From: Escherichia coli
GTDB lineage: Bacteria; Pseudomonadota; Gammaproteobacteria; Enterobacterales; Enterobacteriaceae
DNA length: 64,000 bases
Strand: one strand, 5' to 3'
Assembly (NCBI RefSeq): GCF_009931435.1
Contig: NZ_CP043414.1
This document shows, piece after piece, positions 60,396-61,218 of the stretch (position 1 is its first letter; every line of letters begins with the position of its first letter). The position numbers and the translations under genes are program-made. The notes under the pieces were generated by a model. The model was not told the DNA's origin. It ran no database searches and saw only the letters and a list, made by a program, of their open reading frames with translations.

Positions 60396-61218
60396 GAGTT
60401 CCCCGCGCCAGCGGGGATAAACCGGCGGTAAAATTGTTGCTACCGTCTGGCCCTTGCGAGTTCCCCGCGCCAGCGGGGATAAACCGACGGTGCAGGATCT
60501 GTAATTCTTGCTCGCGATGAGTTCCCCGCGCCAGCGGGGATAAACCGAGTTATCAGGATTATTCCCGCTCCGCCGCCAGGAGTTCCCCGCGCCAGCGGGG
60601 ATAAACCGTCGTTTTTGTGGTGGGAGTGTGCGGATTGGTAGAGTTCCCCGCGCCAGCGGGGATAAACCGGCTGACATTGTCAGCTATAACCTTACAATGT
60701 GGAGTTCCCCGCGCCAGCGGGGATAAACCGACGTCCCGCTATTTCCTGGACAGTGTGTAGCGGAGTTCCCCGCGCCAGCGGGGATAAACCGGCGGCGCTA
60801 ACGTGATAATCACGATCAATTATGAGTTCCCCGCGCCAGCGGGGATAAACCGCGGGCGTTAACCTTTTTATAGGCATCTTCCTTGAGTTCCCCGCGCCAG
60901 CGGGGATAAACCGGCTTGCAGCAGCTGCGCCAACATCTGAATACGGAGTTCCCCGCGCCAGCGGGGATAAACCGCTTTTTCCCGTGACAAGATCCAGTTA
61001 ACTGTTGAGTTCCCCGCGCCAGCGGGGATAAACCGCATCACTGGACGCCCATTTGAATAACTCACAGGAGTTCCCCGCGCCAGCGGGGATAAACCGATTC
61101 AGCAAATAGCGAATTTCATAAATATGATGTGTTCCCCGCGCCAGCGGGGATAAACCGTACGTTAAACGCCATCTGTCATGGGTCGTCATGTGTTCCCCGC
61201 GCCAGCGGGGATAAACCA
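60396..61218 (+). CRISPR. CRISPR array, type I-E repeat GAGTTCCCCGCGCCAGCGGGGATAAACCG: 14 repeats, 13 spacers (one 33 bp, twelve 32 bp); last two repeats are GTGTT.. variants and final repeat ends ..ACCA
   Basis: Repeats at 60396, 60458, 60519 ... 61190 with 61-62 bp periodicity, read directly. Confidence 0.95.

Follow-up and report, generated by a model that had tools for sequence, protein, structure and literature searches.

The type I-E CRISPR–Cas system of Escherichia coli is usually considered silent in nature, and its arrays stable over very long periods. Its CRISPR-II site lies between ygcE and ygcF (queE) and houses a large array, CRISPR2.3, and a remnant, CRISPR2.2 (PMC3903273, PMC4489801, PMC10910852), the latter being described, as part of CRISPR-II, as three repeats with two invariant spacers (PMC4489801). 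A split layout is the norm for this system: the two CRISPR loci lie approximately 20–24 kb apart and only CRISPR-I has cas genes adjacent to it (PMC3903273, PMC4489801, PMC10910852). Strains without the cas-E operon are reported to carry fewer repeats (PMC4489801) and to retain the CRISPR2.3 leader (PMC3903273). In K-12, the ygcE–ygcF array takes up spacers under Cas1–Cas2 expression and is the basis of a routine acquisition assay (PMC11879090). On the side of the targets, E. coli spacers are mostly directed at prophages (PMC10910852).

Against this background, we analyzed a 64-kb stretch of E. coli DNA (hereinafter the window), at whose ygcE end lies a locus of this kind. We can state with high confidence that it is the E. 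coli CRISPR-II locus, comprising CRISPR2.3, its leader and the fossil CRISPR2.2, and thus the cas-distal half of a two-locus type I-E system whose Cas proteins would be supplied in trans. The repeat, the period, the hairpin, the leader, the genomic position and the protospacer-adjacent motif (PAM) are all of the E. coli I-E type. Between recD and yqcE, the window and K-12 are collinear but oppositely oriented; except in three accessory islets and at the CRISPR locus, they share 94.7–97.4% identity. The core genes of the window are 98.6–99% identical to those of E. coli, and strain R32_14_1F is 99% identical over the entire length of the window. A source in an Escherichia species other than E. 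coli, to which identities of 92–95% to some records might point, was therefore rejected; the variable array and a ygcG-like region depress these values. The left flank is queE (ygcF; 59386..60057, + strand), a 223-aa open reading frame that is annotated as such in the matching E. coli records, whereas the right flank is ygcE (61856..63334, − strand), a 492-aa open reading frame coding for an FGGY-family sugar kinase and likewise annotated in the matching records. Beyond it, yqcE, coding for an MFS transporter (63361..64000, − strand), is cut by the end of the window and was recognized by its synteny with K-12, N96, D8 and R32_14_1F. Hence, the locus sits between ygcE and ygcF/queE with its leader on the queE side, which is the placement required by the definition of CRISPR-II (PMC3903273, PMC10910852).

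The CRISPR2.3 array (60396..61218, + strand), delineated by means of a repeat search, the spacing, shuffles and repeat folding, consists of 14 repeats, each of 29 nt, with 13 spacers between them. The repeat, GAGTTCCCCGCGCCAGCGGGGATAAACCG, occurs in 14 plus-strand copies, 12 of which are exact, with the last two showing 1 and 2 mismatches; degeneracy of these last two is as expected at the trailer end. The start-to-start distance between repeats is 62 nt once and 61 nt twelve times, with one spacer of 33 nt and twelve of 32 nt, and all 13 spacers are preceded by a repeat with a terminal G. In 100 dinucleotide-preserving shuffles the mean number of copies was 0.00, as against the 14 observed. 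As RNA, the repeat adopts a hairpin with a stem of 7 bp and a loop of 4 nt (−15.1 kcal/mol; z = −3.6), a stem–loop of the kind recognized by Cas6e, whose recognition of it is accordingly predicted. The consensus repeat is identical to that of CRISPR2.1 of K-12. Searches against Rfam recovered no CRISPR family at the gathering thresholds, and at E ≤ 1 gave only a chance match to GadY, a result that carries no information on the array. A spurious 131-aa open reading frame spans spacers 1–4.

Upstream of the array, the AT-rich leader (60058..60395, + strand) was defined by its A+T content and by alignment to the leaders of K-12 and of the relatives of the window. Over the 338 nt from the queE stop codon (60057) to repeat 1 it has 67.8% A+T, compared to 50.8% for the whole window, and its last 60 nt reach 75%. 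The leader of the K-12 ygcE–queE array aligns along its full length, with the last 50 nt being identical, whereas the leader of K-12 CRISPR2.1 is clearly different. Beyond K-12, it is identical at 338 of 338 positions to that of the draft genome GCA_030511265.1, and four strains other than K-12 show 94–100% identity to it. This leader probably holds both the array promoter and the region where Cas1–Cas2 and IHF dock, roles that have been assigned to such leaders (PMC3903273, PMC11879090). A scan of the locus for sigma-70 promoter and terminator consensus elements returned no more sites than shuffled sequences, and none in the repeat-proximal leader. The only match in the leader to the exact IHF consensus WATCAANNNNTTR is at 60280–60292, 104 nt upstream of repeat 1, and we attach no functional claim to it. 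Thus, the description given in the earlier note, made without database searches, holds up on several counts: it had called a type I-E array at 60396–61218, with an intact AT-rich leader, between queE and ygcE, and its 13 spacers, given leader-proximal first, are exact letter for letter and in the right order.

Downstream of the array, there is an AT-rich segment of 453 nt (61219..61671; 72.4% A+T) between CRISPR2.3 and CRISPR2.2, of a kind described previously (PMC3903273, PMC10910852). It is followed by the CRISPR2.2 remnant (61672..61810, + strand), a mini-array overlooked by the earlier note, with three degenerate repeats (61672–61700, 61721–61749 and 61782–61810) and two spacers, one of 20 nt and one of 32 nt (GACTTGTTATCATTTTTTAAGTTGTCGAACTT). 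The two degenerate repeats that we folded, those at 61672 and 61721, still give a hairpin. The 32-nt spacer is identical in every E. coli locus compared (K-12, N96, D8, R32_14_1F, MFDS1022581 and several drafts), and the distance from the last CRISPR2.3 repeat to the repeat at 61721, 502 nt, is the same in the five named strains. As the leader, the gap, the position and CRISPR2.2 all match those of K-12, the array of the window is the orthologue of the K-12 ygcE–queE array (variously called CRISPR2.3, CRISPR2 or CRISPR II), with which it also shares the orientation and the repeat family. The differences lie in the content: K-12 has 6 spacers, as opposed to the 13 of the window, with none in common, and its repeats start with GTG, whereas most of those in the window start with GAG. 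In comparison, CRISPR-I (CRISPR2.1, next to iap) uses the same repeat and Cas machinery as the array of the window; however, it directly follows cas2, has a different leader and falls outside the window.

The earlier note had raised possible spacer matches to phages and plasmids: spacers 4, 10, 11 and 13 do match phages or prophages, whereas none of the 13 matches a plasmid in PLSDB. Spacer 11 is identical at 32/32 positions to a gene for a replication protein, carried by a lambdoid prophage of STEC384 and STEC379; spacer 13 matches, at 31/32 positions (with a mismatch at position 29), the gene for the terminase large subunit of a P2-like prophage found in several genomes; and spacer 10 matches, at 32/32, the IMG/VR contig UViG_3300045988_132558, beside an ImmA/IrrE-like gene. 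All three of these high-confidence targets have AAG immediately upstream, the probability of which by chance is about 4e-6. The contig matched by spacer 10 shares 98% identity over 759 nt with an ST131-type prophage that is also matched by spacer 4, which agrees at 30/32 positions with an unannotated stretch of this prophage in ST131-type and related genomes among those listed, preceded by ATA. In the INPHARED phage collection, spacer 7 gave a weak match of 28/32 to recE of phage Rac-SA53 (E = 0.6; upstream ATT), and the other 12 spacers gave none. For spacers 1 and 9, only near-identical spacers in the arrays of other strains were found, and for spacer 12 only an identical one, with no protospacer for any of the three; spacers 2, 3, 5, 6 and 8 had no match in any collection searched. 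The IMG/VR scans, run with patterns in which every sixth spacer position was free, yielded a target for no spacer but spacer 10; their negatives carry little weight, given that the pattern serving as positive control for spacer 13 likewise recovered nothing. Within the 64-kb window, no spacer has a self-match elsewhere at up to 7 mismatches. To judge by these matches, the target spectrum of the array, namely temperate phages and prophages, is as reported for E. coli (PMC10910852).

With regard to the cas genes, tblastn searches of the 64-kb window with 16 Cas proteins, covering both E. coli I-E variants, detected no Cas homolog at E ≤ 1e-3. The statement of the earlier note that there are no cas genes within 64 kb is thus borne out for the letters of the window, yet it is one-sided, for the window covers 60.4 kb on the queE side of the array as against a mere 2,782 bp on the ygcE side. 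It is on the ygcE side that the cas genes of E. coli lie: the order runs through yqcE and ygcW to ygcN, queD and cysJIH, and then the cas-E operon. Between the array and cas3 there are 16.8 kb in K-12, 17.0 kb in D8 and R32_14_1F, and 19.8 kb in N96, where an IS66 insertion accounts for the longer gap. In a sample of 15 neighborhoods, gathered through common YgcN and CysH alleles, at least a part of the cas-E operon adjoins cysH in every one, with 4 having a cas3 that is missing, interrupted or deleted. Hence, the lack of cas genes in the window is very probably due to its ending 2.8 kb past the array, short of their expected site. By analogy with these genomes, the operon is expected approximately 14 kb beyond the end of the window, that is, approximately 17 kb past the array.

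The draft genome GCA_030511265.1 (contig JAUKZB010000003.1; loci L012, L026 and L037) is the nearest relative around the array and is informative in this respect. Its left flank runs for 8.6 kb without differences, except for the last base of repeat 1, and its right flank shows 1 synonymous difference (62072) in 2,965 nt; the YgcE protein is identical in the two. The cas region of this contig, which we reached via YgcQ and CysI alleles unique to it, has the gene order hok, cas3, cse1, cse2, cas7, cas5, cas6e, cas1, cas2, with cas3 starting 17,063 bp beyond the final CRISPR2.3 repeat, equivalent to a window coordinate of about 78,300. All eight cas-E open reading frames are open, including a cas3 of 893 codons, which has no stops, is 92% identical to the intact Cas3 of D8 and is absent from the gene table of that record. 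This cas variant is of the hok-linked type and does not align to the cas3 of K-12.

These observations allow us to weigh what kind of array this is. The proposition that the repeats are a product of chance, or a tandem repeat other than CRISPR such as REP or a minisatellite, can be set aside entirely: it is refuted by the 14 copies where 0.00 are expected, the unique 32-nt spacers between them, the exact E. coli I-E repeat, the homologous leader and position, and the PAM-flanked protospacers. The earlier note had called the array an orphan, and a strain that lost or inactivated its cas-E operon would indeed be left with such an array, which would at most yield unprocessed RNA. Apart from the 64 kb devoid of cas genes, this possibility draws on the damage to cas-E known in E. 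coli: N96 and R32_14_1F both have a cas3 annotated as frameshifted, and the latter a frameshifted cas5e as well; in GCA_028488525.1, an IS disrupts cas3; and two further loci (L034 and L036) have lost cas3 through cas7. Moreover, orphan I-E arrays of strains lacking cas-E, such as those of phylogroup B2, occupy the same ygcE–queE position with the same leader (PMC3903273), such that a preserved leader is compatible with it as well. However, the cas side is visible for only 2.8 kb, and the nearest relative, with matching flanks, has eight open cas-E genes. Further, the arrays of cas-less strains are reported as being reduced in repeat number (PMC4489801), whereas that of the window has 14 repeats, 12 of them perfect; these include the leader-proximal one, as against the mutated first repeats of both the array of N96, with its frameshifted cas3, and the 3-repeat array of MFDS1022581. 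The label of orphan is therefore unsupported, given that the cas-E operon of E. coli lies about 17 kb away on the ygcE side, and we consider a true relic improbable. It is instead very likely that the source genome carries a cas-E operon, and the array itself, as far as its sequence allows one to judge, is probably functional, being cas-distal and of the standard type.

The spacer content throws some light on the history of this array. Neither the array nor its spacer set is present in 5,426 complete RefSeq E. coli genomes; in one of the complete RefSeq records there is a place of at least 99% identity, with query coverage too low for that record to rank among the 40 listed, and no other record is above 90%. 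The earlier note had pointed to the comparison of the spacer order with other E. coli arrays. Spacers 11, 12 and 13 are common to the window and GCA_030511265.1, in the same order at the end of the array; spacer 13 is also the trailer spacer of N96 and R32_14_1F, and spacer 12 that of two MFDS strains. The polarity is the normal one, with the shared spacers 11, 12 and 13 at the trailer end and the unique ones at the leader end. Spacers 1, 7 and 9 have near-identical counterparts (29/30 to 31/32) in the arrays of other strains, including a 31/32 counterpart of spacer 7 in the CRISPR2.1 array of LSC52; for this spacer, such counterparts are present in many further strains. An ENA metagenome contig of 1.3 kb (ERZ25021429; L011) carries spacers 1–6, X1, 7, 8, X2, 9, 10 and 11, and its extra spacers X1 and X2 indicate that the lineage of the window lost two internal units. 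Over the 10 kb up to position 60000, another locus (L019) shows 100% identity to the window, as against 93–94% from the leader onward, a break from which we read that recombinational exchange of the CRISPR locus happens here. Genomes sharing one of the TPM-protein alleles of the window carry a different array, and another such allele had no match on record.

In contrast to the shared trailer spacers, the leader-proximal blocks of the window (10 spacers) and of GCA_030511265.1 (nine spacers, c1–c9) are entirely different, and two explanations bear on this. One is that both blocks were acquired after the split of the two lineages, which would mean that the type I-E system had recently adapted to a prophage in nature, possibly with priming. 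Both arrays are indeed directed at the same ST131-type prophage family, which is matched by at least four spacers of the sister array (c1, c3, c4 and c6) and by spacers 4 and 10 of the window. In the prophage of SK1144 (L039), c1 has a 32/32 match preceded by TCA, c3 and c4 each have a 32/32 match with AAG, and c6 has a 31/32 match with ATG; the targets of c3, c4 and c6 are on the same strand and within 1 kb of the prophage. Further, the repeat before c1 ends in A rather than G, in agreement with the TCA upstream of the c1 protospacer, and this is therefore a genuine acquisition at the leader end. The alternative is a static system, in which the cas genes are present but silenced and the sister arrays differ through the loss of units from a longer ancestral array. 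It would take an ancestor of 22–24 spacers, of the form [w1–w10 and c1–c9]-11-12-13 with the two blocks (w being those of the window) in either order, and a single deletion per lineage. The internal losses read from the metagenome contig fit well with such a process, as do reports of long-term array stability and deletion-driven diversity (PMC10910852). Speaking against it, no array with both blocks was found among the 5,426 complete genomes, and the terminal A of the first sister repeat, with its counterpart in the TCA of the c1 protospacer, is not what mere loss would leave behind. We give the static alternative a real standing, albeit below even likelihood, and offer recent acquisition of both blocks only as a tentative and rather doubtful proposal. 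If the latter were true, such natural adaptation would be notable, since activity in natural isolates is undemonstrated (PMC10910852).

Returning to the CRISPR-II reading favored above, we advance the following plausible mode of action for the locus, modeled on the known type I-E system. The array would be transcribed from the leader toward ygcE, and Cas6e (CasE) would then cut at the base of each repeat hairpin to release 61-nt crRNAs, each made up of an 8-nt 5′ handle (ATAAACCG), a 32-nt spacer and a 21-nt 3′ hairpin. Cascade loaded with such a crRNA could find AAG-flanked protospacers in temperate phages, whereupon Cas3 would degrade the target. New spacers would be inserted at the leader–repeat junction by Cas1–Cas2 together with IHF, and the last G of each repeat would derive from the PAM. 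The proteins for all these steps would come in trans from the cas3-cse1-cse2-cas7-cas5-cas6e-cas1-cas2 operon beside cysH. Given that the K-12 orthologue acquires spacers, the cas-distal position does not stand in the way of function. Most of the time, expression is probably repressed by H-NS, as it is in K-12.

In conclusion, the CRISPR-II locus is already known, as are its separation from the cas genes, its leader, its repeat and its tendency to target prophages; all of this belongs to textbook E. coli. In E. coli, the array of CRISPR-II sits, as a rule, approximately 17 kb from the cas genes, which carries a lesson for window-based scans: a finding of no cas genes nearby is meaningless for an array that lies 2.8 kb from the edge. 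What is particular to this array lies in its spacers, which document earlier encounters with a lambdoid replication module, a P2-like terminase and an ST131-type prophage. They are also of use in strain typing, for they tie the source strain to GCA_030511265.1 and to a single ENA metagenome contig, with R32_14_1F, N96 and the MFDS strains as more remote connections. Finally, the comparison of the two sister arrays provides a small lead on natural spacer acquisition in E. coli lineages.

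At the array-bearing end of the window, comparison with L019, the corresponding locus of GCA_021697395.1, suggests recombination, with a breakpoint on the boundary between queE and the leader. The two are 100% identical across 50001-60000 and 99.7% identical across 46526-60422; past the leader start (60058 onwards), identity is only 93-97%, except for most of ygcE (99.3%). The L019 array also differs from the window's array (CRISPR2.3, 60396-61218); such a breakpoint is consistent with an exchange of the CRISPR-II module. Among the arrays of the loci L019, L020, L001 and L007 there is a repeat variant, GAGTTCCCCACGTCAGCGGGGATAAACCG, that has A for G in the stem and T for C in the loop. 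This variant is the dominant repeat in some CRISPR2.3 arrays and marks the first repeat in strains N96 and MFDS1022581. Within the window's own leader, an exact match (AATCAATGGATTA) to the IHF consensus WATCAANNNNTTR lies at 60280-60292, 104 nt upstream of repeat 1, and no exact or one-mismatch occurrence of this consensus is found closer to the repeat.

The window's locus has a sister in GCA_030511265.1 (contig JAUKZB010000003.1; L012/L026/L037), whose flanks are virtually identical to those of the window and which has the trailer spacers 11-13 in common with it; its nine leader-proximal spacers (c1-c9) differ from the window's. Four of these (c1, c3, c4 and c6) are all directed at the same ST131-type prophage (SK1144), with protospacers at 26453-27477 and 41826-41857 of the prophage locus L039. 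The sister-array repeat preceding c1 ends in an A, in agreement with the TCA found upstream of the c1 protospacer.

The 1341-bp metagenome contig L011 (ENA ERZ25021429, NODE_71481) carries the window's array plus two additional internal spacers, with GCATTCAGCTGCAATTAGTAGAAGACGATACA separating spacers 6 and 7 and ATTTCGAAACCCCGGCAATATTCTTTAATGTG separating spacers 8 and 9; these two extra spacers imply that the window's lineage has undergone two unit deletions. The newest, leader-proximal spacer of the window (spacer 1, 60425-60457) is 33 nt long, not 32, and off-length spacers occur elsewhere, namely of 33 nt in N96 and of 31 nt in GCA_030511265.1.

Downstream of the array lies a remnant, CRISPR2.2 (61672-61810), which the earlier note did not mention. 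The two of its degenerate repeats that were folded, ATATTCCTTGTAAAAACAGGGATAAACCG and ATGTTCCCTGCATCAGCGGGGATAAACCG, retain a 7-bp hairpin, the stem having changed on both sides with the hairpin kept.

Elsewhere in the window, the sRNA genes for GcvB (14409-14614) and CsrB (37709-38068) occupy the same positions as in K-12. A 5.5-kb islet (4225-9788), absent from K-12, separates amiC from the three tRNA-fMet genes metZWV (9789-10085). Its products are a BglG/LicT-type antiterminator, a maltose/glucose-type PTS IIBC, a PatB/MalY C-S lyase, a short KpsF/GutQ-like isomerase and a 2-hydroxyacid dehydrogenase. A 6.8-kb cluster (21738-28566) takes the place of fucP between fucI and fucA, and codes for a ribose-type ABC transporter (ATPase, permease and binding protein), an FGGY pentulose kinase and a LacI/FruR-like regulator. 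Of 5,426 complete E. coli genomes, 381 carry this cluster at a coverage of at least 80%, with R32_14_1F as the top match. The segment 50791-51484, missing in N96, occupies the site held by mazEF in K-12, D8 and R32_14_1F. Finally, 55627-59213 holds four genes, a LemA-family protein and three ORFs (310, 382 and 301 aa) whose counterparts in relatives are annotated as TPM-domain proteins, whereas K-12 has only yqcG-ygcG at this site; the stretch varies more between strains than the adjoining DNA.

Returning to the spacers, the arrays of many other strains carry near-identical versions of spacer 7 (60792-60823; 31/32), spacer 1 (30/32) and spacer 9 (29/30). The spacer 7 near-copy checked in strain LSC52 is located in the separate, cas-adjacent CRISPR2.1 array. 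The presence of such near-identical spacers in other arrays suggests that the same protospacer site has been sampled repeatedly from diverged phages.
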